From: Flavisolibacter sp.
GTDB lineage: Bacteria; Bacteroidota; Bacteroidia; Chitinophagales; Chitinophagaceae
Assembly (NCBI GenBank): GCA_035714205.1
Contig: DASTMJ010000205.1
Span: 1 to 55,695, forward strand
DNA length: 55,695 nucleotides
Direction: 5' to 3'
Below the pieces are notes generated by a model. The model ran no database searches. It was not told where the DNA came from and worked only from the letters and a program-made list of their open reading frames with translations. A program made the position numbers and the translations under genes. This document shows positions 441-17,202 of the stretch, one piece after another. Within the stretch, counting starts at the first letter, position 1, and every line of letters starts with the position of its first letter.

Positions 441-487
441 CAGCAATACCCGTTATTTAATTATTCTTGCTTCCTCCATAAAAAACC

Positions 488-907: not shown

Positions 908-923
908 GTCTGAAAGTTTTTCG

Positions 924-988
924 TAAAGCTATTAAGAGGATAGATGTGGATTCATGAGGACCGTCAGGATATTTCTTGATACCAATTA
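924..988 (-). promoter_or_regulatory. Tandem Crp/Fnr-like box promoter
   Basis: TGAGGACCGTCA (955-966) and TGATACCAATTA (977-988), 22 bp apart; minus-strand TAGCTTTA at 931-924. Confidence 0.75.
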
Positions 989-1025
989 CCGGATATGGTA
1001 AGACAGCGGTGTTTATCTGTGTGCA

Positions 1026-2921
1026 TCAGTTATTTGCAGGCAAGCCTATAATAACAGTAGTTCCTTTATCTAATTTGCTGATTATCCTGATTGTGCCGTT
1101 TAAAAGATTTACGTATTTCTTTACAATATGTAAGCCCAGGCCTGTTCCCTGGATATTCTGAGCATTTGTTGCCCTGTAAAAACTTTCGAATAAATGTTTT
1201 TGATCTATCCTGCTAATACCTATTCCCCTGTCCTTTATTTTTATCAGGACCTTTTTCTGTTCTACAAATGTTGTAATTGAGATCTTTTTGTTTTCCTGCG
1301 AAAATTTAATAGCATTAACAATTAAATTGAGAAGGATGGTTTTTAGTAATTTTTTATCCTGTTCTATTACTGTAAGACCCTCATGGACATACCGCAGTAT
1401 CTGACCTTTTTTTAAGAGGGGGTTTAGTTCTTCCGTTATGTTGGTTATCAAGTCTTTTATATTAAAGCGGGTACTATGAACAACTGCTTTGCCCTCTTCC
1501 AGTTTACCAAGTGAAAGGAAATCATCAAGCAATGTATTCATGTGGTAAACGGCTTCTTTGATCCTGCTCAGGTGGCGGTTTTTATGTGCATCAATTATGT
1601 CCGCCATATATTTTTCAAGTAAATAAAGGGAAGATAGAATAGTGCTGAGTGGTGTTCTGAACTCATGTGAAGCCATAGAAACAAACCGGCTCTTCATTTC
1701 GTTTAGCTGGTGTTCTTTTTCCAGGGATTTCTTTAAATGTTTTTCGGAAAGCTGTAGTTGCCTCAGGCTTTGCGTTAGTGATTGTTTTAACAAAGTTTCT
1801 TCCGTTATATCAATTGCCCATCCGCCAACATAAAATTTGCCTTCTGATAAAATGGGAAATTTTATAATCTGGTAACTATGCTCCTGCCCATCCGGGGTAA
1901 CTCCTTTTTCTATGGTACGCAAGATCTTGGTGCTGGCTCGCACCAACTTGTCGTGTTCAATATACGATTCAGCAAAATGTGATGGGAAAACGTCGGCAAG
2001 GTGTTTCCCAATATCTGTTTTTTTCAGCTTGAAGGTTTTTGCATACGAAGGGTTTATATAGTTCAATGTACCATCTTCACCGGTTATCCATGATAAAATA
2101 GGGCTGTTATCCATAAAGGTTTCAAAAAGCTTTTTGCTTCGGTAAAGAAGTTCATTTAGCTGCTCTATCGATTTTTGAGGTGTGATGTCCCTAACCAGGC
2201 AGCATGCATGCGTGATAAAGCCTTCCGAATTCTTTACTGGGAAATAGCTTGCCTGTATCCAGATATTTTTGTTTTTTACCTTAATCTCTAACTGATAAGT
2301 ACATTTTTGTCCGCTGAGTGCAGTTTGGAAACACTCCCTGATTTGCTCTTTTCGGTGTTGGGGTAATTTTGAGATCACATTATCGCCGGATTTATAAGTA
2401 AATCCATATGTTTCTTTGATTTTTTTATTTGCTTTTTCATCGATATGCACCAGTTGCAGATCTTTATTTATTACAAAAAATATGTCATCTACAGAGGAGA
2501 TGATCGATAAAAAGGTTGACAGCTCTGTTTTGGTCTCGTTTAATTCTGTAATATCCCGGTGTACTCCAACGTATCCAATTGTTTTTCCTTTTGGATTTTT
2601 GATAACAGTAACTGAAGCATCGATCAATAATAGTTTTCCTTCATTGGTCAGGAAATGAATATTGCCCTTCCAATATCCTTTTTCCAATAGGTCTGTTCTT
2701 GCTTTTTCTTCGGAGTGAGCAGGGTAAATAAATTTCAAAATGGTATATCCCCTTTTCCCAATAGCTTCTGCAGAGGTGTATCCAAAAATTTCTTCAGCTC
2801 TCCTGTTCCAATATTGTATAATAAAATTCTCATCTGTGGCAACAACTGATTCGTCGATGCTCCTTAACAGGGCGGTCAAATATTCCGAATGAAAAACCGG
2901 TGGATGGCTGGCAATCCTCAT
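1026..2921 (-). CDS. Cytoplasmic multi-PAS sensor histidine kinase
   Basis: Three PAS-like repeats (e.g. YWNRRAEEIFGYTSAEAIGK); H-box SHEFRTPL, N-box NAIKFS, G1 DRGIGI, G2 GTGLGL; no TM segment; ATG 2921 preferred to TTG 2936. Confidence 0.93.
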   Translation of the reverse strand: MRIASHPPVFHSEYLTALLRSIDESVVATDENFIIQYWNRRAEEIFGYTSAEAIGKRGYTILKFIYPAHSEEKARTDLLEKGYWKGNIHFLTNEGKLLLIDASVTVIKNPKGKTIGYVGVHRDITELNETKTELSTFLSIISSVDDIFFVINKDLQLVHIDEKANKKIKETYGFTYKSGDNVISKLPQHRKEQIRECFQTALSGQKCTYQLEIKVKNKNIWIQASYFPVKNSEGFITHACCLVRDITPQKSIEQLNELLYRSKKLFETFMDNSPILSWITGEDGTLNYINPSYAKTFKLKKTDIGKHLADVFPSHFAESYIEHDKLVRASTKILRTIEKGVTPDGQEHSYQIIKFPILSEGKFYVGGWAIDITEETLLKQSLTQSLRQLQLSEKHLKKSLEKEHQLNEMKSRFVSMASHEFRTPLSTILSSLYLLEKYMADIIDAHKNRHLSRIKEAVYHMNTLLDDFLSLGKLEEGKAVVHSTRFNIKDLITNITEELNPLLKKGQILRYVHEGLTVIEQDKKLLKTILLNLIVNAIKFSQENKKISITTFVEQKKVLIKIKDRGIGISRIDQKHLFESFYRATNAQNIQGTGLGLHIVKKYVNLLNGTIRIISKLDKGTTVIIGLPANN

Positions 2922-3056
2922 GGTATTGCAAAGCACACGATAAACATTGACTAAAAAAATGAGTTGAGTGGTTCCGGCATTTGATTCTGCTCAGATTTTC
3001 AAAGCCAGAACGTTCTTCCAATAAAAAATTTGAGACTGCTTCCTGTGACCGGATGA

Positions 3057-3121
3057 TGACGATTGTCAGTAGGGTTCATAAGTCTGCTCATTCATTACCT
3101 CCGGGAGTAACCTTAGTTTTA
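3057..3121 (+). promoter_or_regulatory. Tandem Crp/Fnr-like box promoter of the response regulator
   Basis: TGACGATTGTCA (3057-3068), TAAGTCTGCTCA (3079-3090), TAGTTTTA (3114-3121). Confidence 0.72.
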
Positions 3122-3171
3122 TTACAATATCCTTTAAAAACCAAAATATTTTTCATTACAAATGGTGAAGT

Positions 3172-4227
3172 ATGAAAACCATTCTATTGATTGAGGATAA
3201 CAGGCAAATACGGGATAATGTAACAGAAATTCTTGAACTTTCCCATTACAAAGTCTTTACTGCGGAAAACGGGAAAGAAGGTGTTACCCTGGCCATTTCC
3301 AACCAGCCCGACCTGATTCTTTGTGATATTATGATGCCGGAACTGGATGGTTATGGTGTACTTCATATGTTGCAAAAAAACCCCCAGTTACAGGATACAC
3401 CATTTATTTTTTTAACAGCGAAAACAGAGCAGGCCGATCTACGGAAAGGTATGTCTTTAGGTGCAGATGATTATATCACAAAACCCTTCAATCCCACCGA
3501 CCTGTTGAATGCGGTTGAAAACAGACTTGCGAAATCAGAGGGTTTGAAAAAAAGATTCAAACATAACATACCTGAAGTGACCGGGCCAGATATAAGGCAG
3601 GACGTTGATTCATTAGTTGAGGAGCTTATGAGTGGCCGGCATATCGATATCTATAAAAAAAAGCAGCGTATATACATTGAAGGAAATCATCCCCTGAGAC
3701 TTTATTACGTTAAAAAGGGGAAGGTGAAAATTTACAAAACCAATGAACGAGGTAAAGAATTAATATTAAAGATCATTAACGAAGGTGAGATCTTTGGATA
3801 TACAGCTTTACTTCTTAATTCGCTTTATTCCGATAATGCGGATGCGTTGGAAGATGCGGAAATAGCGACATTACCCAGCAGTGAGTTCCAGGAATTTGTA
3901 CGATCCAATCCCCGGGCTTGTGTAGGATTCACAAAACTTTTGGCAACTGAAATTATAACAAAGGACGAACAGATGATCGGCCTGGCTTTCAACTCGCTAC
4001 GTAAAAAGGTGGCCAACGCCCTGGTAAGTTTGCAAAGCAGGTATACTGACAAAGCACAGCCATTATCGATCAACTTAAGCCGGGAAAACCTGGCTGCTTT
4101 GGCTGGTGCGGCTACTGAATCATTAATAAGAACATTAACCGATTTCAAAGCTGAACACCTCATAGATATCAAAGGTGGAAATATCATAGTCAAAGATTTT
4201 GATAAGCTTGCCAAGATAGCTGATTAA
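3172..4227 (+). CDS. Hybrid response regulator: REC + cNMP-binding + Crp/Fnr HTH
   Basis: REC (LIEDN, DLILCDIMMPELDG, FLTAK, KPF); cNMP fold (LYYVKKGKVKIYK, GEIFG); HTH SRENLAALAGAATESLIRTL. Confidence 0.93.
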   Translation: MKTILLIEDNRQIRDNVTEILELSHYKVFTAENGKEGVTLAISNQPDLILCDIMMPELDGYGVLHMLQKNPQLQDTPFIFLTAKTEQADLRKGMSLGADDYITKPFNPTDLLNAVENRLAKSEGLKKRFKHNIPEVTGPDIRQDVDSLVEELMSGRHIDIYKKKQRIYIEGNHPLRLYYVKKGKVKIYKTNERGKELILKIINEGEIFGYTALLLNSLYSDNADALEDAEIATLPSSEFQEFVRSNPRACVGFTKLLATEIITKDEQMIGLAFNSLRKKVANALVSLQSRYTDKAQPLSINLSRENLAALAGAATESLIRTLTDFKAEHLIDIKGGNIIVKDFDKLAKIAD

Positions 4228-4316
4228 GAGCCATTATTCCGATTTGCGTACACAAGTTTATGACAGAGCTACATAAAATCATCAGTCTAAAATCAAACGA
4301 TTTACAGGCCGCTTAC

Positions 4317-4381
4317 TGACCACAATCATTTGGCTAACCCTTCTCAATCATTGGTTCTTCAGTTAAAGGAAATCAATTTTG
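4317..4381 (+). promoter_or_regulatory. Degenerate tandem-box promoter with no downstream CDS
   Basis: TGACCACAATCA (4317-4328), half box ..CAATCA ending 4350, CAATTTTG at 4374-4381 with the same 23-nt spacer. Confidence 0.55.
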
Positions 4382-4385
4382 GGTC

Positions 4386-4444
4386 TGGTTTTTCATAGGA
4401 TATTGGACTTGCAACGGGCTGGATTTCTATCCAGCCTTCTTTTT
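4386..4444 (+). ncRNA. Candidate ~58-nt sRNA (A)
   Basis: Between the promoter at 4317-4381 and hairpin GGCTGGAT-ttct-ATCCAGCC + TTCTTTTT; 5' seed TTTTTCATAG; 5' end inferred. Confidence 0.45.
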
Positions 4445-4690
4445 ACCCAGGATAGTCGGGAAAAAAAAATACGGTATTCAGGTGAACAAGCTTTTGCATA
4501 TTCAATAAGCTACTTCAAATCGCACCTGTTGATCCAATTCTATTTTATGCTTTTGATGTAGAATGACATGGGGATGTTGGTGTTGTAAAAGAACATCTTT
4601 AATACACTATCATAAGCCTGGGGGAACAATTAGAAAGCAAAAGAAAAATTATTTAAAGAGCCGGATCCTCTGCCTCATTACTGAAGGGTT

Positions 4691-5176
4691 TCATTTTTTA
4701 CGGCTATATATACCCGTAAGTGAGCCGAAGGCCATTATGTTATCGCTCATAGCTTTTTCCACGTCGTTCACGTTTGCCGTGTTTTCAATCTTAAGAATAT
4801 TGTTGAGTGCATATACTTTAAACTGATAACGGTGAGTACCGGTTGGAGGGCAGGGTCCGCCATAACCACGTTTTTTAAAATCATTGATACCCTGTATCCC
4901 GGATTTGTGGCCTTCCCTGATATGGTGGGTTATGGGAATATTCCAGTTCAGCCAATGCAACCAGGTACCACCGGGTGCATCAGGATCGTCAACAATAAGA
5001 ACAAGAGATGCTGCTGCTTCAGGAATATTAGCCAGGTCAAGCGGCGGATTATCATTTGATCCATCGCAGGTATACTTTGCTGGTATACTTTCATTTTCCT
5101 TGAAAGCCGGGCTTGTAACAATGATCATTTTAAAATCTTCCACTTTCGTGGCTTCAAACGATTTTGCAGGGTTCAT
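4691..5176 (-). CDS. YbhB/YbcL family (PEBP/Raf kinase inhibitor-like) protein
   Basis: DDPDAP, WLHW, GINDF, YGGPCPPTGTHRY motifs. Confidence 0.93.
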   Translation of the reverse strand: MNPAKSFEATKVEDFKMIIVTSPAFKENESIPAKYTCDGSNDNPPLDLANIPEAAASLVLIVDDPDAPGGTWLHWLNWNIPITHHIREGHKSGIQGINDFKKRGYGGPCPPTGTHRYQFKVYALNNILKIENTANVNDVEKAMSDNIMAFGSLTGIYSRKK

Positions 5177-5256
5177 AATGCATTAATTTATCGCCAGGCG
5201 TGAATCGCCTGATTTGCAGCTATCAAAGGGCATAAAACCGAACTTCATCTCATTTT

Positions 5257-5291
5257 AAATAAGGTAATGCCATAAAGACACTACCTTATTT
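5257..5291. terminator. Hairpin downstream of the BON gene
   Basis: AAATAAGGTA / TACCTTATTT inverted repeat. Confidence 0.5.
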
Positions 5292-5293
5292 AT

Positions 5294-5965
5294 TCAGAAA
5301 GCTAAAACTTCCTGGGGTTCAATTTTCAGGTTGTTCTCTACAATGGAAACGCCCGGTGCACACCATGCAGCGTGTACGGCATCTTCTCTTTCTGCATTGG
5401 ACCTTACCTTACCGTTTAGTATGATCATATTACCCCTGACCTCAATGCTGATCTTTTCAGAATCTATACCTGCACTTCTTTTAAAGGCTTCAGAGATCCT
5501 GGATTTAACATCAGCCGCTGTAACTTTTGGTTTGACGGTGATAAGATTCAATACATTGCGAACGCCAAGTAAATTGTTAACGGCTTTTTTTGCAGAGTTG
5601 CGCTGGTATTCCCATTCAACTTCGCCTTCAAGAGTTACAATACCGTCTTCTACCTTTACTTTTATTTTTTCAGACGGAACCATGCTATGCCACTTTATAG
5701 CGCTGATTACTGATTCTGCAATTTCTGCATCTGTTTTAAGATAAGAAGGTGAAACGCCTATTTGTATATCTTCCGCAATAGCCCTTACACCTGCGATCTT
5801 TTTAGTTGCTTTTTCTGCAGCCAGTTTTTGGGAGTAACTATCAACCTGGCCTGAAAGGGTAACAATACCGTTCTTAACAGCTACACCTATATCAGAAGCA
5901 GTAAGAAAAGGTTCCCATTTCAGCTGGCTTATAACATCCTGTTGAATTTCAAGATCATTTTTCAT
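5294..5965 (-). CDS. Triple BON-domain (OsmY-like) protein
   Basis: Three repeats of the type IGVAVKNGIVTLSGQV / IKVKVEDGIVTLEGEV / ISIEVRGNMIILNGKV; ends AWCAPGVSIVENNL. Confidence 0.92.
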   Translation of the reverse strand: MKNDLEIQQDVISQLKWEPFLTASDIGVAVKNGIVTLSGQVDSYSQKLAAEKATKKIAGVRAIAEDIQIGVSPSYLKTDAEIAESVISAIKWHSMVPSEKIKVKVEDGIVTLEGEVEWEYQRNSAKKAVNNLLGVRNVLNLITVKPKVTAADVKSRISEAFKRSAGIDSEKISIEVRGNMIILNGKVRSNAEREDAVHAAWCAPGVSIVENNLKIEPQEVLAF

Positions 5966-6030
5966 AATAAAGTTATTTTAACATTGATGAGTGAGAAAGT
6001 TGCAAATACAAGAAGTGTTTGCATACGCCG

Positions 6031-6096
6031 CAAAGCTTATATAGAATAATCCCCGTTAACAATGAGCACGGTCAAAGCTGTTGGTGACGCCTGTCA
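6031..6096 (-). promoter_or_regulatory. Tandem Crp/Fnr-like box promoter of the BON gene
   Basis: TGAGCACGGTCA (6063-6074), TGACGCCTGTCA (6085-6096); minus-strand TAAGCTTTG at 6039-6031. Confidence 0.78.
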
Positions 6097-6120
6097 GTGA
6101 TCCGGGGAAATGGTAAGTAA

Positions 6121-6699
6121 TTATATAACTTTCTTGTTTTTCAAAACCCAATACAATCCTTTTACATTGGCTCTCCATTCGGGGATAACAAAAACCAAGA
6201 TGATCTCTTCAATAAGATCTACTGCTGTGATTACGGCTGCCATGTAAAACAGCAGGTAAGGCATATCTGTGAGAAAAAATGCAAAGATCAAAAATAAGCC
6301 CTGGAACAGGGCTGCGGTTTTGGCGAAGTAGGTATGAAAACTACTGAACTTGCCATAGCGTAAAAAGGCTAATGATACTTGTAGAATGAACAATATAAGC
6401 AGGAAACAGATCAATAAAATTTCCTGCTGAATAAATGCTGGCTTCCATACAAATAAGCCGATGATGCCCATCAAAACCGTCATGTCATCGGCAATAGAAT
6501 CAATACGGGCACCCATCACACTCACCACATGATATTTGCGGGCAAGAAAACCATCAATTGAGTCAGTAAAAAAACTAATAGCAATCATCCATTTAAAAAT
6601 ATCCGGCCTATCCCTGTAAATAAGGTAGAGTAATAAAAAGGCAGAAAGCAACCTGTAAACAGTAATGGCATTTATGATATAATAGCTTTTTCTATGCAT
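6121..6699 (-). CDS. CDP-alcohol phosphatidyltransferase family protein
   Basis: Signature DSIDGFLAR..GARIDSIADD; multiple TM helices; ATG 6699 preferred to TTG 6723. Confidence 0.92.
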   Translation of the reverse strand: MHRKSYYIINAITVYRLLSAFLLLYLIYRDRPDIFKWMIAISFFTDSIDGFLARKYHVVSVMGARIDSIADDMTVLMGIIGLFVWKPAFIQQEILLICFLLILFILQVSLAFLRYGKFSSFHTYFAKTAALFQGLFLIFAFFLTDMPYLLFYMAAVITAVDLIEEIILVFVIPEWRANVKGLYWVLKNKKVI

Positions 6700-6741
6700 T
6701 GTAGGGGTAGCTAAAAAAATCAATTATAAATATAACCTTAC

Positions 6742-6805
6742 TGACAACAAATATTAAATGTGCTGACTGATGTCATTACTTAACAACATTTCAAACCTTA
6801 TTTTG
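6742..6805 (+). promoter_or_regulatory. Tandem Crp/Fnr-like box promoter
   Basis: TGACAACAAATA (6742-6753, imperfect), TGACTGATGTCA (6764-6775), TATTTTG at 6799-6805. Confidence 0.6.
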
Positions 6806-6857
6806 TGACTTATTTATGCCCTGTGGATGAGCGCTGGAATAGTATTAATTATTGATC

Positions 6858-6995
6858 ATGAAATCTACATCCCATAAACGGAGACCATTAAAATTTGGCA
6901 ACAGGGAAATAAAGCCGGTGGTTGTGTTGACATTCCTTTTTTTAATCCTGCTCTTTATTGCTTTTTATGTTGTGCTGAAAAATCCAGCCCGTTGA
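6858..6995 (+). CDS. Small single-pass membrane protein, 45 aa (not in ORF track)
   Basis: Manual translation MKSTSHKRRPLKFGNREIKPVVVLTFLFLILLFIAFYVVLKNPAR: basic N-terminus and 20-aa hydrophobic helix; follows a tandem-box promoter. Confidence 0.6.
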   Translation: MKSTSHKRRPLKFGNREIKPVVVLTFLFLILLFIAFYVVLKNPAR

Positions 6996-7054
6996 AAACA
7001 GGTTGCATATAACCTGTATAACATTTCATTATTTTATTCAGTAAACGAGAAGCT

Positions 7055-7447
7055 ATGAAACTTTTGCTTGCAACTAAGAAATGTATCAAAGACCTCAATA
7101 GAGAAATTGCAAAAAGATTCCCGAACCTGAAATTGCACTTTTACACCTCTGTAACAAAAGTTGGACCTTCTTTCCATTTTGGATCAAAGATCGCAGACAA
7201 CACTTTGCTTGATAAACTGGTTGAGAACTTTAAGCCTTTAGTTTTAGAAGTACATCCCTGGGATACAGTTGCTTACCTGCAACAGGTATTTGAAAACGAA
7301 TTGGGCTTGTTTGTACAGGTATTTAGAAGATCTGGTAATGACTGGCTGGAAACAAGAGGAACCGAGCACCTTACTCTTGAAACGCAAAATAACATGACCT
7401 ATGAGAATTGGAATTTCCATTTTAATATTAATACCCTCTATTTATAA
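7055..7447 (+). CDS. Hypothetical protein, paralog of 8854-9258
   Basis: Shared motif QVFRxxxxxWxxTxGTxxxTLExQN. Confidence 0.8.
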   Translation: MKLLLATKKCIKDLNREIAKRFPNLKLHFYTSVTKVGPSFHFGSKIADNTLLDKLVENFKPLVLEVHPWDTVAYLQQVFENELGLFVQVFRRSGNDWLETRGTEHLTLETQNNMTYENWNFHFNINTLYL

Positions 7448-7528
7448 TACGATCAGCGTGGCATTTTTTTTAGCCTGAAAAAAATGGGAATGTACTGTGC
7501 CGTTGTGCCTGTTCGTTACGACCTGTGC

Positions 7529-7593
7529 TGACAGCTTTCACGCATATAGCTGACCATCATCATTGAAATAGACTTAGCAGGTCTTTACTTTCA
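7529..7593 (+). promoter_or_regulatory. Tandem Crp/Fnr-like box promoter
   Basis: TGACAGCTTTCA (7529-7540), TGACCATCATCA (7551-7562), TACTTTCA (7586-7593). Confidence 0.78.
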
Positions 7594-7617
7594 GGATCTA
7601 TTGCTTAAATCAAAATC

Positions 7618-8802
7618 ATGAAACCAGTCATAACCATCCTGTTGTTATTATTTTCATCTCAACAGGCACAAGCTTATCGTATGTTATGGGGAAGAACAGT
7701 TAATCTTACCCAGCCGGTTTATGAAGACCTTTATATTGCCGGCGGAACCGTAACGCTGAGCGCACCTGTATATGGCGACCTGATAATAGCCGGTGGTACA
7801 GTGTATATTAATGACTCCGTAAAAAATGATCTTTTGGTTGCAGGTGGCAAGGTAACAATTAATGGATATGTTGCTGATGATATACGATGTGCCGGTGGTG
7901 AACTTTACATTAATAAAAATATTGGAGGCGATCTTGTCCTGACCGGCGGCAAGGTAGAAATAAAAAGACAAGTTGTAATAGCGGGCGGACTTGTTGCGAG
8001 TGGTGGTGAGATTATGATGGCAGGAACCGTTAGCGGTGATATACGCAGTACGGCAGGTAATTTTATTTTTAGTGGAACTGCACAAAAAAACTTTGATTAC
8101 AGGGGAAGGCAACTTGTTTTGAATGGAGACGTGTGGGGTAACGCCATTATAGCTGCCAATCAAATAACAATAGGAGAAAACGCAGCATTTAACAATGGAG
8201 TTCGTTACTGGAGTAAAAAAGGTGAATTGGATTTCAAGTCCTCCATAAAAAACGGAGCTGCAGTTTTTGATCCTGCACTTAAGTTAAAAACAGATAACTG
8301 GTATTTCCTTGGTCATTCAACGCTATTGGGATTAAGCTGGTATCTGATCACTGTTTTTTTATTCCTGTTGTTGATAGAGTTCCTGTTTGGTAAAACATTT
8401 AAAATTGCAGGTAACCAGTTGACAAAATCCGTTATAGCCTCACTAGGCTGGGGTTTATTATTTATTGTTGGTATTCCAGTATTGGTTGTACTTCTATTGT
8501 TAACCATTATTGGTATCCCGTTTGGATTGATACTGATGGCCTGCTATATAGGGTTCCTGGTATTGACAACCATAATTGTGTCCCTGGTATTAGCTAACTG
8601 GGTTAATTATCGTTTTCAGCATCAATGGAAATTCTGGAAATTGATTTTTGCAGCATTTGGCTTTTTTGTCTTATTAAAGATCATCACGTTTACACCTTTT
8701 TTTGGCTGGCTCATTATGTTTATAATAGCCTGTATTGCTATAGGTGCATTGCTGCGTAACATTCACTGGCATAGAAACCGGGAGATGGTCGGCGCAGGGT
8801 GA
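7618..8802 (+). CDS. Bactofilin-like beta-helix repeat membrane protein
   Basis: Signal peptide; ~17-aa repeats DLxxAGGxVxIxxxVxG; hydrophobic C-terminus with about 5 TM helices. Confidence 0.8.
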   Translation: MKPVITILLLLFSSQQAQAYRMLWGRTVNLTQPVYEDLYIAGGTVTLSAPVYGDLIIAGGTVYINDSVKNDLLVAGGKVTINGYVADDIRCAGGELYINKNIGGDLVLTGGKVEIKRQVVIAGGLVASGGEIMMAGTVSGDIRSTAGNFIFSGTAQKNFDYRGRQLVLNGDVWGNAIIAANQITIGENAAFNNGVRYWSKKGELDFKSSIKNGAAVFDPALKLKTDNWYFLGHSTLLGLSWYLITVFLFLLLIEFLFGKTFKIAGNQLTKSVIASLGWGLLFIVGIPVLVVLLLLTIIGIPFGLILMACYIGFLVLTTIIVSLVLANWVNYRFQHQWKFWKLIFAAFGFFVLLKIITFTPFFGWLIMFIIACIAIGALLRNIHWHRNREMVGAG

Positions 8803-8853
8803 TGTTCCTGTTGATGAATTGAAACCATTTGTATCACCATCAAAAAAAAGGAT

Positions 8854-9258
8854 ATGAAAATCCCGTTAGATCCTTCCACAACGTTAATGGATATTCAGAG
8901 GCAATTCCAGTTGATGTTCCCTTTACTTAGCATTAGATTTTCTGATAAAGAACACCAGTTTGGCGAAGCCATTCTTCATGGTCATTGGCATGATGAGTCA
9001 TTACCATTTCTTTCCATTACCAAAACCCGCTACCGGGACTATATTGAAATTGAAAAGTGGTATAAAACGGGGGATGTAGAACAATTGTTGCAAAAGTTCT
9101 TTGGAGTACATCCGCAGGTATTCAGGAAACAAAACGATTCATGGATTCAAACTGCAGGCACTGATGAATTTACCCTTGAAGAACAAAATGAAATAGCGCA
9201 AAAAAATATACAGGATGAAATGGGCAGCTTCTGGCCAAAAACCGATGCTTTATTGTAA
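8854..9258 (+). CDS. Hypothetical protein, paralog of 7055-7447
   Basis: QVFRKQNDSWIQTAGTDEFTLEEQN aligns with QVFRRSGNDWLETRGTEHLTLETQN. Confidence 0.8.
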   Translation: MKIPLDPSTTLMDIQRQFQLMFPLLSIRFSDKEHQFGEAILHGHWHDESLPFLSITKTRYRDYIEIEKWYKTGDVEQLLQKFFGVHPQVFRKQNDSWIQTAGTDEFTLEEQNEIAQKNIQDEMGSFWPKTDALL

Positions 9259-9462
9259 TCCAGTGTTGTACTAGTATTTCTATGGAATTCCTGCCCTTAG
9301 AAATTGTGGATAAGAACAAATTCCCGATGATGATGCCACTTATAATTACTACATCTGGGTTAGCCAGTAGAGGTTGGTATTTGTATTCTGATAGACGGAA
9401 AACCTTTTTTGCGAAAAAGCGGGGTTCTTGTAGACAGGAAGGTTCAATAATGTGACAGCCTC

Positions 9463-9527
9463 TGATTGCTGTCATTGAACGGAGTGATGGGCATCATTGC
9501 ATTAAGCTTAAACTTGGCTTAGCATTG
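9463..9527 (+). promoter_or_regulatory. Tandem Crp/Fnr-like box promoter
   Basis: TGATTGCTGTCA (9463-9474), TGATGGGCATCA (9485-9496), TAGCATTG (9520-9527). Confidence 0.78.
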
Positions 9528-9579
9528 CCATGTGATTTTTAGGAAGCATGAAGTAGGTAAAATTTAAAACTTATCAGGT

Positions 9580-10074
9580 ATGAAAAAAATAACAATAATA
9601 CAGCTGGCAGTCAGCCTGCTTTGTGCAGGGTATATTCAAACTGCCGTTGCCCAGGTGGATACGATGAAAACACTTGAGCCTGTTGTGATTTATGCAAAAT
9701 CAAATGTAAATAAAGCTGTTACTGATGCCTTTGATAAACATTTTAAGGATGCGATGGACCCACAGTGGTTCCGTATGAATAAAGACTTTCTTGTAACGTT
9801 TATTACAGGAGATATGAAGAATAATGCCTTATTCCGCAAGAATGGCAAAATGGTTTATCATGTTAGTTATGGCCAGGACCATAACCTTCCTGATGAATTA
9901 AAAACACAGGTGCAAAATGGATATCCCGACTATAATATTACCAGGGTGGTAAATGTAAAGATGGATAACAGGGATGTATGGGTTGTAAATTTAGAAGGTC
10001 TAAAAAAATGGATCATTGTACGAATGGAGGACGGTGAATTGGAAGAAGTAGAGAACTATGACAAGGCAAGCTAA
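9580..10074 (+). CDS. Exported PepSY-like/BLIP-like (DUF2874-type) protein
   Basis: Signal peptide (AVA-Q); two repeats VNKAVTDAFDKHFKDA..W and LPDELKTQVQNGYPDYNI. Confidence 0.65.
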   Translation: MKKITIIQLAVSLLCAGYIQTAVAQVDTMKTLEPVVIYAKSNVNKAVTDAFDKHFKDAMDPQWFRMNKDFLVTFITGDMKNNALFRKNGKMVYHVSYGQDHNLPDELKTQVQNGYPDYNITRVVNVKMDNRDVWVVNLEGLKKWIIVRMEDGELEEVENYDKAS

Positions 10075-10116
10075 AATTTATTGACCAGAATTTTTCGAAT
10101 CAGGTTCTCTGCCTGT

Positions 10117-10146
10117 AAAAAGAGTTGCATCCTGCAACTCTTTTTT
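10117..10146. terminator. Bidirectional intrinsic terminator
   Basis: AAAAAGAGTTGCA-tcc-TGCAACTCTTTTTT between convergent genes. Confidence 0.85.
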
Positions 10147-10179
10147 GTTGCCCGATTAAATTTATTTATGGTTAAAATA

Positions 10180-10551
10180 CTATTCTTCATAGATCCATTT
10201 TTTGAAATGAGGTGCCGTTTCCTGGCTTACTATTATTGAGTGGTTGTTGGAACGTAGTGTAAGATTTACTTCCAGTTTTACTTTTTCAAAAGACCTGAAA
10301 CCCTTGATGTAATGTATATTGATCAAATATTTTCGATTGGCCCTGAAAAACAGTGAGGGGTCCAGTTCTTCTTCCAATGCGGAAAGGTTTTTATCGCACA
10401 AGTATTTTTTCTCGTTTTTATCTACTGCAATAATCACAGTATGATCCCTGAATATAAAAGCAATGTCTTCTAGTTTTAATGCGATATTTTCATTGCCCTT
10501 TCTCACAATTAATCTTGTTTTCATTTTTTTCATAGTTTTCAGTCGTTCCAT
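10180..10551 (-). CDS. Stand-alone LytTR DNA-binding domain protein
   Basis: LSALEEELDPSLFFRANRKYLINI..IIVSQETAPHFKKW; in-frame stop just upstream, so no REC domain. Confidence 0.9.
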   Translation of the reverse strand: MERLKTMKKMKTRLIVRKGNENIALKLEDIAFIFRDHTVIIAVDKNEKKYLCDKNLSALEEELDPSLFFRANRKYLINIHYIKGFRSFEKVKLEVNLTLRSNNHSIIVSQETAPHFKKWIYEE

Positions 10552-10620
10552 CGTTCACGATTTCCTTCGTAAAATATTTACAAATGCCAGGAATTTCTTT
10601 GTCACAAGTTGCGCATATGA

Positions 10621-10770
10621 TGAACGGAAATTTAGATGTGTGAACGTTAGTAAATAATTGTGCATAGTTTTTTGATGGATTTCATCTGCGATTTTTCACG
10701 CTTCATTTATGGATGCAGAAAAATTTCAACCTTGTTATTTGTCATTTCAAGCACCTGTTTAGCTGTTTCA
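10621..10770. promoter_or_regulatory. Phased direct repeats, candidate LytTR sites
   Basis: TTCA cores at 10681, 10702, 10725, 10746, 10767 (21-23 bp period, plus strand); TGAACG at 10621 and 10641 facing lytTR. Confidence 0.55.
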
Positions 10771-11047
10771 GAATTATGAAGCAGGCCATCTATTCCCGGG
10801 GAAAATTTTCACTTGATTTGGCTCCTATTATTTACCTGGTTTTTCTTTTCACTGTAAAACCCCGGATTCAAACAGGCTAATTGCGGATTTATACCAGAGA
10901 TCTGCGCCTTCGCATTTATTCCTCTTTTTTTTATCCATATTTTTTCCTGTTTCATATGATCAATTTCATGGTTTACATATTGATTGATGTTTGTTTGAAT
11001 CAATTCTAATCAACTTGTGGTCTTTGATAACAAAACACTTCATGCTG

Positions 11048-14000
11048 ATGAGAAAAGATATTATGTTATGCTTCGGCTTTTTCCTGCTAAGTATGCAGGT
11101 GATGGCCCAAACCAGGATTGTTTCCGGAAAAATTTCGGATACACAAGGCAAGGCAATTCCCGGAGCTTCCATTGTAGTAAAGGGAACAACCAACGGTACT
11201 TTAAGTGCAAACGATGGTTCGTTTACATTGTCGGTGCCGGAAAATGCAACCTCGCTGCTGGTATCAAATATTGGAATGGGCGAAAAAGAGATTAGTCTTA
11301 CTGACGCCTCTTCTTATAATATTATATTAACTACGGTTACAAAAAACGACCTGCAGGAAGTAGTAGTGGTTGGTTATGGTACCCAAAGGCGGGCGAACGT
11401 TACTGCGTCTATCTCCACTGTGAAGGCTGCGGAAATTGAAAACAAGCCATTTACTTCTGTAGATCAAATGCTGCAGGGTAAAGTAGCAGGTTTACAGGCA
11501 CCACTTTCAACGGGTCAGCCAGGTGCAGCGCAACCCATTCGGATAAGAGGTATCGGTTCAGTTAGTGCAGGGGCTAGCCCCTTATATGTTGTGGATGGTA
11601 TTATTGTAAATTTTGGTGACCTTTCAAGACTTTCAACCACTTCAAATGCACTATCCGGACTTAATCAAAACGATATTGAATCGGTTAACGTTTTGAAAGA
11701 TGCACAGGCAACATCCATTTATGGTTCAAGAGGCTCGAATGGTGTAATTGTAATCACCACAAAAAAGGGACGTGCAGGAAAAACTAAGTACAGGGCCGAT
11801 GTGGAGATGGGGGTCAATTCTTTGGCGCCTTTACCGGATAATGCTCATTTTTTGAATGCAGAAGAGTACCTGATGCTGCAGGAAGAAGGTTTGATAAATC
11901 GTGGTGCGACCCAGGCGCAAATTGATGCAACACTAGCTGCGTTAGGAAAGGGAAGTGGTGTTGACACGGACTGGATGGATCTTGTTCAACGTAATGGAGT
12001 GCAGCAACAATACAATTTATCTGCCAGCGGGGGTGATGCCAAGAACCAGTTTTATGTTTCGGGAGGTTATTTTAAACAGCAGGCGGCTGTAATTCCAGCC
12101 GAATTCAAAAGATATTCGCTAAGAACGAATTACAAGCACATAAGCAGTGATAAATTGAATTTTAATATCATTCTCAATGCTTCTCACTCTTACCAGAATA
12201 CACCACTGAATGGTGGTTTATTTGCCAGCCCTATTTCAGCAGTTGCCTGGTTGCGTCCTACAATGAACCCTTATAATGCTGACGGAAGTTTAAATATCAG
12301 CACAACAGGTGGATCTAATTTTAATAATGGGGCGTATAACCCGCTTTATATTGCCAAATATGACAAGAACGATCTGAACAGAACCCTGTTGCAGGGAAAT
12401 ATCAGTGCGGAATATGCCATTCTCAAAGGGCTGAGGTTTACATCGCGGTACGGAGTGGATTATAATCAAATGGAAGAATACAATTATTATAACCAGTTTC
12501 ATGGCGATGGTCCATCTCAGGGTGGCATTGGCCTGGCCTACTATACAAGATATTTCAACTGGATCGCTACCAATCAATTGGATTATAATACGTCTTTTGG
12601 GAGCGATGGATTATTAAGGCTGGACGCAAAACTTGGATATGAAGCACAAAAATCCAAGAATTATAACATAAATGCCCGGGCAGATGGTTTTCCTCCAAAC
12701 AGTGATCTGTATCTTTCGGTAAATGCTGCCACACCTAAAGCCGGTGCTGCCTCAGCTTCCGATTATGATTTCGCCGGACTTTATTCTGCTATAACATTCA
12801 ATTTCGATGACAAATATATTCTTAGCGGAAGTTTTCGCAGGGATGGATCATCAAGATTTAGTGATAATACAAAATATGGTAATTTCTGGTCTGTAGGCGG
12901 TGCCTGGAACATCAATAAGGAGGATTTTTTTGCTGCCCTATCTTTTGTAAATTCTCTAAAACTCAGGGCATCGTATGGTAAAACGGGTAATGCAAGTCTT
13001 GGAGATTATGCATGGCGACAAACCTATGGTTTTGGTTTCAACTATAACGGCCAGCCTGGTGGCACCTTTAATGTGGTAGGAAATGAAAATCTTACCTGGG
13101 AAAGCACCAACCAGGCCGATATTGGTATGGATGCAAGCTTTTTAAATGACCGAATCAGTATTGTAGTTGATGTATACAGACGCGTTTCTGACCGGCTGTT
13201 GTTCTCGCAACCTCTTTCACGAACGACAGGATTTACCTCATTTACCAATAACATTGGGAAGTTGGAAAATAAAGGAATTGAATTCACATTAAATGCAACA
13301 CCATTACGAACGAAAGATTTTTCGTGGGATTTAAGTTTCAATATCACTCATAATAAGAATAAGGTTTTAAAGCTACCCGATGGAAAGGATATAGTAGACG
13401 GCGCTTTTATTTTGAGAGAAGGTTATGATTACCGAACTTTTTATGTAAGGGAATGGGCCGGTGTGGATCCTGCAAACGGCGACCCGTTATGGTACGTTGA
13501 TGGTTCGCATGAAGAGACAACGAATAATTATAATTCGGCACAACGTCAGCTGATTGGCAGTGCATCACCAAAATATTTTGGCGGGCTTACCAATTCCTTT
13601 TCGTTCAAAGGTTTTACGCTTGCAGCAGATCTTGTGTATAATTATGGAAACCGGGTAAGAGATGGCTGGATATTTTACCTGGCAGATGGCGCCTACCCTC
13701 CGTTCAATAAATACCGTATCAATTTACAAAGATGGCAAAAGCCGGGAGATGTTACCGACGTTCCCAAATATGTGTATGGATCAACTAATAGCTCAAGCAG
13801 TTTTTCTACACGTTTCTTAAATAAAGGCGATTTCATCAAGTTAAGAAATGTAACCATCAGTTATGACCTGAACAGTAGTTTAATTAGTCGTATTGGGCTG
13901 AACAGTGCACGGTTTTATGTAAGAGGCACCAATTTGTTGACAAAAACGTACGACAACAACTTAACCATAGATCCCGAGCAAGGCATAAACGGAGCTTCCA

Positions 14001-14056
14001 ACCAGGATATTTATTACACCAGGTCTGTTACAGCAGGATTAAATATTGGATTTTAA
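11048..14056 (+). CDS. susC: SusC/RagA TonB-dependent transporter
   Basis: LQEVVVVGYG, IRIRG, PLYVVDG, DIESVNVLKDAQATSIYGSRGSNGVIVITTKKG, LTWE, terminal F; start 11042 or 11048. Confidence 0.96.
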   Translation: MRKDIMLCFGFFLLSMQVMAQTRIVSGKISDTQGKAIPGASIVVKGTTNGTLSANDGSFTLSVPENATSLLVSNIGMGEKEISLTDASSYNIILTTVTKNDLQEVVVVGYGTQRRANVTASISTVKAAEIENKPFTSVDQMLQGKVAGLQAPLSTGQPGAAQPIRIRGIGSVSAGASPLYVVDGIIVNFGDLSRLSTTSNALSGLNQNDIESVNVLKDAQATSIYGSRGSNGVIVITTKKGRAGKTKYRADVEMGVNSLAPLPDNAHFLNAEEYLMLQEEGLINRGATQAQIDATLAALGKGSGVDTDWMDLVQRNGVQQQYNLSASGGDAKNQFYVSGGYFKQQAAVIPAEFKRYSLRTNYKHISSDKLNFNIILNASHSYQNTPLNGGLFASPISAVAWLRPTMNPYNADGSLNISTTGGSNFNNGAYNPLYIAKYDKNDLNRTLLQGNISAEYAILKGLRFTSRYGVDYNQMEEYNYYNQFHGDGPSQGGIGLAYYTRYFNWIATNQLDYNTSFGSDGLLRLDAKLGYEAQKSKNYNINARADGFPPNSDLYLSVNAATPKAGAASASDYDFAGLYSAITFNFDDKYILSGSFRRDGSSRFSDNTKYGNFWSVGGAWNINKEDFFAALSFVNSLKLRASYGKTGNASLGDYAWRQTYGFGFNYNGQPGGTFNVVGNENLTWESTNQADIGMDASFLNDRISIVVDVYRRVSDRLLFSQPLSRTTGFTSFTNNIGKLENKGIEFTLNATPLRTKDFSWDLSFNITHNKNKVLKLPDGKDIVDGAFILREGYDYRTFYVREWAGVDPANGDPLWYVDGSHEETTNNYNSAQRQLIGSASPKYFGGLTNSFSFKGFTLAADLVYNYGNRVRDGWIFYLADGAYPPFNKYRINLQRWQKPGDVTDVPKYVYGSTNSSSSFSTRFLNKGDFIKLRNVTISYDLNSSLISRIGLNSARFYVRGTNLLTKTYDNNLTIDPEQGINGASNQDIYYTRSVTAGLNIGF

Positions 14057-14070
14057 TTAAAAAATTTATC

Positions 14071-15534
14071 ATGAGCTCAAACAAAATAATTATATCAATA
14101 GCAGCCATATTGATTTTTACAGGCTGCAAAAAAGAATTTTTCAACCAGGAGCCTTACAATTCGCTCCCGTTGAATGAAGCCATCAAATCCGAAGCCGATC
14201 TAAATACAGCTGCCAATGGCATGTACAGCAGTTTGCGAAGTGTTAATTTATATGGACGTACACTGATTGTAAAAGGTGACCTGATGGCTGACGATGTATA
14301 CCTGAAGCCTACCAACTCTGGCCGGTACTTATGGGCTAGAGACTATAATCAAACGGCAGCAAATGGCGATATGGAAGGTGCATGGAACTCTGCTTATAGT
14401 GCCATTAAAAATGCTAATACGGTTATTAACGCCGATTTGCCATCATCTACCATAGTAGATGAATTAAAGGGTGAGGCTTATGCTGTAAGGGGTTTAATGC
14501 ATTTTGAACTGGTGAAGCATTTTGCAAAACCCTATACGGTCGATCCCGGTGCGCTGGGGGTGCCCATCGTTACTTCTTTTAACCAAAACGCAATGCCGGC
14601 CAGGAATACGCTACAGGAAGTTTACACCCAGATCATAGCAGATCTTAACCAGGCATTTACTTTAATGACAAGAAATGCAGGTGAATCATTTAAAATAATC
14701 AGCACAAACTATACCCGGGTAAAAAATAGCTCGCATATGAGTAAATACACGGCAAAAGCCTTGCTTGCCAGGGTATACCAGCATATGGGTGATTGGGAAG
14801 GTGCAAGAGAAGCTGCACTTGATGTTATAAATAACAGCGGGTTTAGTTTGGTTGAACCGGGTTCTTTTGCGGCTTACTGGAAAAGCCCCGCATTCAGGAC
14901 AGATCGGGTAGAAACGTTGTTTGAAGTGTCTACAGACATTGCCGGGAACCTTGGCACAAATTCCTTATCAGCATTTTATGATGCCTTTGGTGGCGGTTAT
15001 GGCGATGTTTGGGTAACAACTGAACATTTTGAACAGTATAGTGCAACAGATGTAAGAACCCAGGTGATTGGGGTGAGCACAACATTATCTCCCGGAAACA
15101 CTGTATATACAATTTATAAATACCAGAACAATACCAATGCGGTTGATAAAGATGATACAAAGGTTATACGTTTTGCCGATGTTGTATTGATTTTAGCGGA
15201 AGCTTACGCCAATTTAGGTGATGATGCCAATGCAAGATTGTGGCTGAATGTTCTGGCTCAAAAAAGAGACCCTGCCTTTACAGGCTACGTTTCATCCGGG
15301 GATGAATTAAAAGCAGATATTCTCCAGGAAAGGAGAAAGGAGTTTGCATTTGAAGGCATGCGATTTTTTGATCTGACACGTTTGAATTTGCCCATTCCTA
15401 ATCATACGATTTCTCAATTTCCCACTGTATTGCTACCAATAGATGCTAATGAGAACCGGAGGGTTAATGCTATCCCACAATCAGAAATTGATGCGAATCC
15501 AAACATCAGGAATCAACAAAATGAGGGGTATTAA
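14071..15534 (+). CDS. susD: SusD/RagB lipoprotein
   Basis: Lipobox FTGC; GEAYAVRG, AKALLARVY, RFADVVLILAEA, ERRKEFAFEGMRFFDLTR, QNEGY. Confidence 0.95.
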   Translation: MSSNKIIISIAAILIFTGCKKEFFNQEPYNSLPLNEAIKSEADLNTAANGMYSSLRSVNLYGRTLIVKGDLMADDVYLKPTNSGRYLWARDYNQTAANGDMEGAWNSAYSAIKNANTVINADLPSSTIVDELKGEAYAVRGLMHFELVKHFAKPYTVDPGALGVPIVTSFNQNAMPARNTLQEVYTQIIADLNQAFTLMTRNAGESFKIISTNYTRVKNSSHMSKYTAKALLARVYQHMGDWEGAREAALDVINNSGFSLVEPGSFAAYWKSPAFRTDRVETLFEVSTDIAGNLGTNSLSAFYDAFGGGYGDVWVTTEHFEQYSATDVRTQVIGVSTTLSPGNTVYTIYKYQNNTNAVDKDDTKVIRFADVVLILAEAYANLGDDANARLWLNVLAQKRDPAFTGYVSSGDELKADILQERRKEFAFEGMRFFDLTRLNLPIPNHTISQFPTVLLPIDANENRRVNAIPQSEIDANPNIRNQQNEGY

Positions 15535-15551
15535 ATGAATATTGACCGAAT

Positions 15552-15580
15552 AAAAAGGGCTGCACAGGCAGCCTTTTTTT
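15552..15580 (+). terminator. Intrinsic terminator of susCD
   Basis: AAAAAGGGCTGC-acag-GCAGCCTTTTTTT. Confidence 0.85.
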
Positions 15581-15612
15581 ATGTAGAGATACTGCAACAT
15601 GGTATTAATTAA

Positions 15613-15726
15613 CTGGTTCATTTACAGATAAAAACCGGTTCAGTTTATTGATATTAATGGTTCGGATAGTAAATGTGCTGTTTCAGATATGTTGACTTAA
15701 AAATGAAATAAGTGCACCTTAATTTG
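15613..15726 (+). promoter_or_regulatory. Four phased repeats plus -7-like element
   Basis: GGTTCA 15615, GGTTCA 15637, GGTTCG 15659, GTTTCA 15680 (22/22/21 bp); TTAATTTG 15719-15726. Confidence 0.62.
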
Positions 15727-15730
15727 CACT

Positions 15731-15828
15731 CAGAATTATTCTCATGTGCGAGGGATTGGTCACAATCCGTCTAATAGTTAAAAATTATTAAGTAGTCCAC
15801 GGGCGGTTTCCACCGCCCGTTTTGTTTT
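15731..15828 (+). ncRNA. Candidate ~98-nt sRNA (B)
   Basis: Own promoter array; seed TTCTCATGTGC (15739-15749); hairpin GGATTG-gtca-CAATCC; terminator ACGGGCGG-tttcca-CCGCCCGT-TTTGTTTT. Confidence 0.55.
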
Positions 15829-15855
15829 AAACATCGAAAACAATATAATAGAAAT

Positions 15856-15879
15856 AAAAATGCCGGGAAGTTTCCCGGC
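15856..15879 (-). terminator. Terminator of the AraC gene
   Basis: GCCGGGAA-gt-TTCCCGGC preceded by an A-tract (U-tract on the minus strand). Confidence 0.75.
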
Positions 15880-15897
15880 CTGGTATTTTTGAACTTG

Positions 15898-16782
15898 TTA
15901 TCTAACCATAGAGGGTGAAATGCCATAAAATTTTTTAAAGGCCTTACTAAAGGTAAACACATCGGGGAAGCTGCAGAGGATAGCTATGTCTGACACCGAA
16001 TGGTTTTTTTGGGTCAGCAATTGTTTTGCCAATTGCATTTTATTCTCTGTTATGTATTGATACGGGGTTTTCTTGTATACTTCTTTAAATCTCCGGAAGA
16101 AATGGTACTCCGACATATTGCAGTAATCGGCCACCTCTTTGATTTCGGAAATCTGCAAAAAATTTGCATCAATAAATTCTTTCGCCAGTTGAAGTCTTTG
16201 TAGCACTTCTTTTTTGGTTGATGGTTTCACTGAATTAATTTCATTTAGTGCCAGGTAGTTGCCATATTCCTGGTAAACGATTCTTTCCGAAAGATCTAAG
16301 AACCATTCTTTATTTACGGCAGGAGCATTGCCAGCTGTGATGGTGGCACAAAGATTTTTTAGTTTATGTCCAATGGATGTGTTTTGACTGGAGTGAATAC
16401 TCTCATAAAAAGCGGGGTATTTAAAGTAGCCAGCCAGGTAATTATCCAGGTCTTCGTTTTTTGAAGTTAGTACAGTAAAAGCCTGGGCTAGAGTTTCAGG
16501 ACAAATGTCAATACAAATACTTTTTACAACGGTTTTGTTTTCGAAATAAGCTTTCACGTTGGGGTGTTTGCAGGCCAGTAAAAACTGATTTGCCTGCACC
16601 GCATGTACTTTACCCTGCACATTGTAATAGATACACTGATCAATAACAAATTTCAGGCTGAAACTTCTGAATGCATTTTGTGTATACCATTCATGCAATT
16701 CAGAATAATAAATCATGTCGCTGTTCAATGGTTTGTTCAGCGATAATTTATTATTCTCGTTGATCCTTTCAAACATCCTCAT
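15898..16782 (-). CDS. AraC family transcriptional regulator
   Basis: Double HTH: EVADYCNMSEYHFFRRFKEVYKKTPYQY and SVSDIAILCSFPDVFTFSKAFKKFYGISP. Confidence 0.93.
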   Translation of the reverse strand: MRMFERINENNKLSLNKPLNSDMIYYSELHEWYTQNAFRSFSLKFVIDQCIYYNVQGKVHAVQANQFLLACKHPNVKAYFENKTVVKSICIDICPETLAQAFTVLTSKNEDLDNYLAGYFKYPAFYESIHSSQNTSIGHKLKNLCATITAGNAPAVNKEWFLDLSERIVYQEYGNYLALNEINSVKPSTKKEVLQRLQLAKEFIDANFLQISEIKEVADYCNMSEYHFFRRFKEVYKKTPYQYITENKMQLAKQLLTQKNHSVSDIAILCSFPDVFTFSKAFKKFYGISPSMVR

Positions 16783-17099
16783 GTAGTTGGTTTCTGTATG
16801 CTAAGATTCATTTTTACAGTTGATTTGCTGCTTTGCCTGTATAACCATTTTGCCATTTATCATATAGCGTCAACAGGCTGTATGCGGACATTATTATATA
16901 ACGTTGCCCAATAAGAAACCGGTAAAGATTGATACCTGAAAAATCATGCTTCAGAATTAGAATTTCATGGTTTATGGGGTGGCAGGCAGGAGTGTGATCT
17001 AAAAAGTGAAATTTTTCTCACCAACCTATTTCAAGATTTCTGGCACCAACTTAGCTGCAAAAATTAAGAATGCTCATTTTGTAAACGTGAATACTTAGA

Positions 17100-17202
17100 A
17101 AACCATCACCTGCTGAGCACTTATTGGAATTCTACGTTATTAACTATTTCTCATGTGCATATAATATGCACATTCCGGGGCCTGTTTTTACAGGCCCTTT
17201 TT
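17100..17202 (+). ncRNA. Candidate sRNA (C), 5' end uncertain
   Basis: Plus-oriented terminator GGGCCTGT-tttt-ACAGGCCC-TTTTT with no plus-strand CDS nearby; same TTCTCATGTGC seed as B; hairpin 17153-17173. Confidence 0.45.

Follow-up and report, generated by a model that had tools for sequence, protein, structure and literature searches.

Predicted small RNAs with anti-start-codon seeds in a Flavisolibacter contig and their families in Chitinophagaceae

Three intergenic units and their neighbours

The window analysed here is the whole stretch of 55,695 nucleotides (nt) of contig DASTMJ010000205.1 from Flavisolibacter sp. (assembly GCA_035714205.1, hereafter the source genome). It carries three plus-strand intergenic units, U1, U2 and U3, each a predicted small RNA (sRNA) with a U-rich UCAU seed and an intrinsic terminator. 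The heptamer TTTTCAT is at 4390 in U1, and TTCTCAT is at 15739 in U2 and at 17148 in U3. A UUUYYA terminator loop (Y = C or U) is common to all three. The first-pass annotation had described such units, and this description was borne out by their coordinates, by folding (z-scores against shuffled sequences of −2.6 for U1, −4.4 for U2 and −5.9/−7.0 for U3) and by conservation in relatives. In homolog alignments, this conservation is limited to seed and terminator, with compensatory changes in the stems. None of the units is a leader, because each faces a convergent gene. Rfam 15 gave no match in the window at the gathering threshold and, at E≤10, chance-level matches, none of them to a Bacteroides family. 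At the DNA level, contigs of four sequencing runs over 3900–4800 agree with U1 and show further copies of its core. Gene and terminator calls were made with simple purpose-written scripts.

U1 (about 4386–4444, +) is a predicted sRNA of about 59 nt and belongs to what we call family A. Its seed (4387–4410), complementary to AUGAAAAAC, resembles the R1 seed of the sRNAs FopS and GibS and is followed by a terminator stem at 4416–4437. A degenerate Bacteroidota −7 promoter box (4374–4381, +) was recognised by its sequence and by its fixed offset in the family copies. Upstream lies a gene for a response regulator with cNMP-binding and Crp-type helix-turn-helix domains (3172–4227, +; PF00072, PF00027, PF13545), a candidate activator of U1. 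A TGA-N6-TCA box (4317–4328, +), which we take to be of the Crp/FNR type, is centred about 64 nt 5′ of U1.

U2 and U3 both begin with UUCUCAUGUGC (anti-AUGAGAA) and form family D. U2, the long form (about 15731–15828, +; predicted length about 98 nt), has an open seed at 15739–15749, a covarying hairpin and a terminator stem at 15799–15820. Its −7 box (15719–15726, +), placed by homolog alignment, has one mismatch to TAnnTTTG. Four GGTTC(A/G)-type direct repeats with a period of 21–22 nt (15615–15685, +; at 15615, 15637, 15659 and 15680) form a predicted LytTR operator of U2. Upstream of them are genes for a SusC-like TonB-dependent transporter (11048–14056, +), which starts AUGAGAA (MRK), and for a SusD-like lipoprotein (14071–15534, +) with its own terminator (15558–15573). 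A stand-alone LytTR-domain regulator (10180–10551, −; PF04397), divergent from susC, is the candidate activator of U2. An AraC-family regulator gene (15898–16782, −; own terminator 15862–15879) is convergent on U2 and divergent from U3. Since U2 lies between the terminators of susD and of the AraC gene, its own terminator is an orphan. U3, the short form (about 17145–17202, +; predicted length about 58 nt), has its seed at 17148–17158, a hairpin at 17153–17173 and a terminator stem at 17177–17198. Its start is placed from the sequence of a weak −7 box (17133–17140, +), and no plus-strand gene lies upstream. Each unit had initially been associated with a regulator of its own. The LytTR and AraC genes do exist, but the former lies 5.2 kb from U2, across susC and susD, and the latter lies between U2 and U3.

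Families of units and a shared terminator loop

A 151-nt U1 query found a match in 36 of 36 other genus genomes (1–11 matches per genome), nearly always confined to the 60-nt unit, and a weak match in 2 of 24 genomes from other families of the order. The source genome had six family-A copies at E≤0.002. An exact 22-nt family-A pattern was found in at least 120 stretches of the genome collection, mostly from Chitinophagaceae. Core invariance among 120 such copies is built in because the core pattern selected them; the conservation of the core was shown independently of this selection by the U1 query across the genus genomes. Among the matches listed, the −7 box ended at a single fixed offset in 80 of 120 copies, sequence conservation ended at this plus-strand box, and the terminator loop was UUUYYA in 113 of 120. 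In 30 aligned copies, double changes were seen in 7 of 14 predicted pairs, all within the terminator. We infer that most U1 paralogs use plain housekeeping promoters. One family-A copy (C62:9100 in the source genome; loci L003, L004, L018 and similar) is syntenic across the genus, between a sigma-54 response regulator gene and a transketolase-like gene that is presumably of the pyruvate dehydrogenase beta type. Another shares its contig with two tandem RRM genes (C216 4090–4591).

For family D, 8 of 40 genus genomes had a U2 match, which covered the seed in 7, and one further copy in a genus relative (G015) was missed by BLAST. The seed is invariant and unpaired in the U2 homologs, and 9 of 18 pairs show double changes. 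U3 had matches in 6 of 40 genus genomes, 5 of them over the seed. A strict pattern for the short form was found in 10 of 101 family genomes, representing 10 genera, with no control matches. One family-D unit of the source genome is in the 3′ untranslated region (UTR) of a long gene that encodes an MRK-start product (C287 156–2670, +), possibly a 3′-UTR-derived sRNA.

Bare-heptamer enrichment before terminators, proposed as a genome-wide signature of such RNAs, was found only weakly. Within 90 nt upstream of 598 terminators, TTTTCAT occurred 13 times (9.3 expected) and TTCTCAT 8 times (2.5 expected; rank 82 of 8802 heptamers, a ranking dominated by tRNA words). When terminators were divided by their loops, UYUCAU was found upstream of 12 of the 28 with a UUUYYA loop versus 22 of the 432 others (p = 5×10⁻⁸; 460 intergenic terminators of the source genome). 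All of ten control hexamers had p>0.05 there, and the link held when the window units were removed (9/25, p = 9×10⁻⁶). It was seen again in G015 (8/13 versus 12/230, p = 5×10⁻⁷), a replication in one genus relative with 2 of its 5.1 Mb sampled. A sample of 0.4 of the 4.5 Mb of G219, with no loop-type terminator and three AUGAGAA starts, was uninformative. Judged by the bases that follow UCAU, the loop-bearing members make up at least four families; a promoter of their own is present in some, and some are in 3′ UTRs. We therefore take the UUUYYA loop together with the seed to mark a superfamily of at least four families.

Among the other members, family C (UCAUAAGCAGUU..UUUUGG; C59, C108, C279, C225 and C62 of the source genome) had the strongest predicted target signal of all families: starts beat both internal AUGs and shuffled flanks, and 40 of its top 60 predicted targets were signal-like. 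One family-C sRNA candidate (C279 10075–10111, −) is divergent from an RRM gene (10575–10784, +). A further conserved unit, UUCAUAUAGCAAGCAAUCGUUAG with a UUUYYA terminator, is present in the source genome (C137, C229) and in G015 (L234, L239, L276). Units of different families also occur in tandem within about 150 nt (L002; C279 2179–2372 of the source genome).

Start codons, predicted targets and regulators

The source genome has Shine-Dalgarno-like words at 89 of 3115 starts, its start regions are rich in A, most of all at −10 to −12, and a search of it found no match to Hfq. These results agree with the earlier expectation of a genome that lacks both. The number of RRM_1 genes was eight. 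The sequence AUGAAAAA opens 255 of 3115 genes, 205 of them signal-peptide-like, and AUGAGAA opens 85, of which 75 are signal-peptide-like, compared with 35% overall in the same crude test. Thus these starts do belong mostly to exported proteins, as had been supposed.

An AUGAGAA start was found in 9 of 17 susC-like genes with an N-terminus versus 76 of 3098 other genes (p = 1×10⁻¹⁰); in G015 the corresponding numbers were 3/21 and 25/1419 (p = 0.007). Predicted pairing with susC-like starts was stronger than with other exported genes for both U2 (p = 5×10⁻⁴) and U3 (p = 2×10⁻⁶). In the source genome, CAC directly preceded AUGAGAA in 7 of 85 cases versus 51 of 3030 other starts (odds ratio 5.2, the best of 64 trimers). 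This context is expected, because the family-D seed predicts CAC-AUG-AGAA. U3 has 17 nt of unbroken predicted pairing (−25.1 kcal/mol) with a susC-like start on contig C248. In the susC adjoining U2, AUGAGAA is preceded by GCUG, both in the window and in two relatives, and the predicted pairing of this susC with U2 is weak (−11 to −14 kcal/mol; −13.6 kcal/mol in the window); therefore it would be spared. In the top 40 predicted duplexes, UCAU was in register with AUG in 31–34. The first-pass annotation had suggested that whole classes of MKK- and MRK-start mRNAs might be silenced. This was not borne out: the heptamer looks like an anchor, and strong predicted targets need an extended pairing of 12–25 nt into the 5′ UTR. 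Selective targeting by extended pairing fits these predictions better than class-wide silencing.

Regulator linkage was clearest for U2. All nine U2 copies have a TT(C/T)(A/G) pair 21 nt apart, 84–51 nt 5′ of the seed (1.5% by chance), in a repeat window that was chosen after the copies had been seen and in homologs that are related rather than independent, two points that weaken the case for LytTR control. In the accessible part of PMC6193735, a LytTR operator consists of direct repeats with a spacing of two turns, placed immediately upstream of the promoter. Five of the nine copies have a linked LytTR gene, three a LytS-type kinase gene and one neither; an AraC gene is adjacent to five. In three relatives the LytTR gene is divergent from U2 itself, and in G025 the layout is the same as in the window. 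With repeat pairs in every copy and a linked LytTR gene in five, the U2 promoter has the predicted operator and neighbourhood of a LytTR regulon. The neighbours of U3 homologs were LytTR, AraC, a receiver protein, a sensor-like gene or none of these. Of 11 more distant family-D loci, 4 had a sigma-54 regulator that was either divergent or one gene away, in a scan covering 19 of the 22 flanking proteins. In the window, TGAACG is repeated 21 nt apart 5′ of the LytTR gene (10621–10647), in the reverse of the U2 promoter repeats, which might indicate autoregulation.

For U1, TGA-N6-TCA boxes occurred 14 times in intergenic DNA of window 1–11.1 kb versus 1.2 expected. A copy in another genome (G029) beside the same regulator has a box at the same position upstream. 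In G011 a further family-A copy is about 930 nt downstream of the Crp regulator, and with the strict pattern one of 29 other loci was beside such a regulator. The box was also tried as a family-wide feature and rejected: it was found in 3 of 201 family genomes at a gap of 48–60 nt, a lower bound, since this gap is too short for U1 itself. Regulator coupling is thus, on this sequence evidence, a property of single paralogs, namely U2 and probably U1. The boxes in intergenic DNA of 440–11092 surround genes for a PAS kinase, the Crp-type response regulator, a BON-domain protein and other small proteins, and this region is likely an FNR/FixK-like regulon island. Inside it are genes for two similar-looking proteins of about 130 amino acids with no Pfam match (7055–7447 and 8854–9258).

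Interpretation and relation to known sRNAs

In the available parts of PMC11697453, FopS is a set of 14 paralogous sRNAs of Bacteroides thetaiotaomicron whose housekeeping promoters are little diversified and which carry a single-stranded seed at the 5′ end as well as a terminator. Its 70% consensus begins GUGUUUUUCAUAGUAUUAGAUUU (supplement file 3), its target predictions include pairing with AUGAAAAA starts, and it blocks the translation of susC mRNAs by pairing close to their start codon, as FopS-10 does in vitro. The same parts trace FopS within Bacteroidaceae only (BLASTn, word size 28). GibS has the same 5′ end as FopS and binds across start codons (PMC7366714, available part). The first-pass annotation had presented the units as a possible undescribed system; this does not hold, since the FopS/GibS RNAs of Bacteroides are multicopy anti-start-codon sRNAs with essentially the seed of U1 that repress susC translation. 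A pattern covering the FopS and U1 forms matched 12 of 16 genomes from the same family, none of the 9 from the order's other families and, at greater distance, 5 of 275; the controls gave no matches. In four distant pattern loci the FopS architecture is complete, and the alignment with U1 holds except for a 2-nt insertion, an additional AAGGUU and another terminator loop. U1 is therefore probably homologous to FopS and FopS-like in its working, although on its sequence it falls short of strict membership by the extended seed.

We put at about 0.7 the probability that U1–U3 are separately transcribed sRNAs of a FopS-like superfamily, predicted to repress translation by seed pairing over AUG and the first codons. 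Their transcription, pairing, repression and control are all what we infer from sequence. The U-rich UCAU seed would pair over AUG and the first codons of selected exported-protein mRNAs, and further pairing would extend into the leader, which in this phylum is A-rich in place of a Shine-Dalgarno site. The neighbouring Crp-type regulator would control U1, a paralog with an anti-AUGAAAAAC seed. The anti-(GCAC)AUGAGAA RNAs U2 and U3 would act chiefly on susC-type transporters with an MRK start. LytTR would switch on U2 together with its own susCD locus, and U2 would damp competing transporters more than its own susC. The RRM proteins, eight in the source genome, would have the partner role that RbpB has in Bacteroides.

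Several results weigh against this reading. Predicted U1 pairing showed no preference for susC starts (p = 0.97), unlike FopS, and U1 flanks were no better than shuffled flanks (0.009 versus 0.009). Real starts did not out-pair internal AUG windows, which may differ from them in composition; the top-2% fractions were 0.017 versus 0.025 for U1, 0.020 versus 0.022 for U2 and 0.014 versus 0.031 for U3. The hairpin of U3 covers most of its own seed in the predicted fold. The CAC link was not significant in G015 alone (2/28 versus 26/1412, p = 0.10) and was absent from the small G219 sample (0/3). No upstream-trimer link was found for family A (CCT before AUGAAAA, 2/395), and in G015 three control hexamers of the loop–seed test reached p = 0.002–0.05. 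With respect to control, a TGA-N6-TCA box was within 120 nt of 3 of the 122 family-A copies listed. Genome-wide, with five regulator families counted, a regulator was adjacent to 1 of 12 other members versus 22 of 445 other terminators, so that the earlier idea of regulator-coupled sRNAs stands for U2, with its conserved LytTR-type promoter, and probably for U1, with its Crp/FNR-type box, but not as a general rule. Finally, U1 has no separate upstream terminator and may therefore also end the Crp-regulator mRNA.

The most serious alternative, though an improbable one, is that the RNAs are mainly decoys or ligands of RbpB-like RRM proteins, which would bind the UUUYYA loop and the U-rich 5′ part, with the anti-AUG look being secondary. 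The loop is kept across families with different seeds, one of the eight RRM genes is divergent from a family-C copy, the genome-wide pairing signal of U1 is weak, and FopS is bound by the RRM protein RbpB and is among its top ligands (PMC11697453, available parts). This explanation would not lead one to expect UCAU in the AUG register in most top duplexes, nor a family-D seed that predicts both the CAC-AUG-AGAA association and the susC bias. FopS pairing was also demonstrated by compensatory mutations (same source and parts), and the roles of protein ligand and pairing RNA are not exclusive. Considerably less probable is that the units are cis-acting 3′-UTR or terminator elements of neighbouring genes rather than free sRNAs. 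U1 lies 160 nt past the stop of the Crp-regulator gene with no terminator between, and some superfamily members lie 25–60 nt past a same-strand stop; U2, however, follows the terminator of susD itself, U3 has no plus-strand gene before it, and family A carries its own −7 box at a fixed distance in varied contexts (among the matches listed). Members derived from 3′ UTRs could still act in trans.

We give very little weight to the possibility that the seeds are starts of small proteins, either minus-strand MK.. or MR.. peptides, possibly of type I toxin-antitoxin systems, or plus-strand MC.. peptides in U2 and U3. The reverse strand does read as a good Bacteroidota start context, but the minus-strand open reading frames (ORFs) at the seeds have 7 (U1), 8 (U2) and 4 (U3) codons. 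The antisense ORF of family A has a median of 20 amino acids (120 copies, among the matches listed) and that of family D 3–57 amino acids (23 copies), both unconserved. The sense ORF has 15 codons in U2 and 10–36 in its homologs, with frame shifts between them, and 3 codons in U3. Conservation stops at the plus-strand promoter box, and no conserved small ORF was found opposite the window units or these family-A and family-D copies. The view that the seeds are not starts of real minus-strand ORFs was thus upheld. Equally little weight goes to the idea that the units are short functionless repeats, either selfish or copied passively: they are multicopy and scattered over varied contexts, but their core is nearly invariant across many genera while the stems covary, promoter, seed and terminator move together, one copy is syntenic across the genus, the core is common to FopS-type loci in other families of the class, and purifying selection on the seed is already visible.

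Returning to the sRNA interpretation, a wider scheme can be proposed, which we consider possible but rather doubtful. Chitinophagaceae might have a start-context code of at least four UUUYYA-tagged families read by RRM proteins, each seed variant addressing another AUG context (AUGAAAAAC, GCAC-AUGAGAA and others). Single paralogs would have come under LytTR, Crp or sigma-54 regulators, and an uptake system, once induced, would thereby shut off its competitors while its own start escapes. An older layer spanning the phylum, with FopS as its gut branch, would then replace the occlusion of Shine-Dalgarno sites by Hfq-dependent sRNAs.

With these predictions, the one multicopy family of anti-start-codon sRNAs that has been characterised in Bacteroidota would be extended from gut Bacteroidaceae to an environmental family of another order. 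Families with other seeds are added, as is a shared terminator-loop tag usable for finding more. Concrete triples of regulator, sRNA and target (LytTR, U2/U3 and MRK-start susC) make it testable how bacteria that lack Shine-Dalgarno sites and Hfq pick among dozens of outer-membrane transporters. The accessible portions of PMC13750123, PMC10994844, PMC9723704, bioRxiv 2025.09.08.672848 and the FopS and GibS papers, a set in which subscription papers are mostly not covered, contain no report of Chitinophagaceae homologs, an anti-AUGAGAA family or the shared loop. What appears to be new is the set of families, the loop tag and the link to LytTR; the mechanism is already known, because FopS represses susC translation by start-codon pairing.

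Compared with FopS, the U1 core is the same except for a 2-nt insertion and one transition, with the R1 seed at the 5′ end. Family A is likewise multicopy, with a −7 (sigma-ABfr) box a few nt upstream and a single-stranded 5′ part ahead of its Rho-independent terminator; its seed is also complementary to AUGAAAAA, and the source genome has RRM genes. In contrast, family A lacks the AAGGUU stretch after the FopS core and with it the extended seed R1′, has a UUUYYA terminator loop that is absent from the four FopS-type loci, and has no predicted preference for susC starts; the U1 promoter carries a Crp/FNR-type box. The seed of U2 and U3 is UUCUCAUGUGC, not R1, so that they would be FopS-like in working but not members of FopS.

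GibS shares the R1 5′ sequence with FopS and U1 and, as an R1-bearing RNA with a condition-specific promoter, sets a precedent for U1. It differs in its length of 145 nt, its second seed R2 and its single copy, in Bacteroides (PMC7366714, available part). By their descriptions, MasB, BatR, IroR and Rfp18 are, like the predicted units, Hfq-independent base-pairing trans sRNAs of Bacteroidota. Section 14 of PMC11697453 places the pairing of MasB and BatR near start codons; the accessible text of PMC10994844 describes MasB as narrowly conserved and binding about 40 nt inside the coding sequence. The DonS-type antisense RNAs of polysaccharide utilization loci also repress susC-type loci. They are cis-antisense to their own locus, whereas U2 is on the sense strand, downstream of susD, and is predicted to act in trans.

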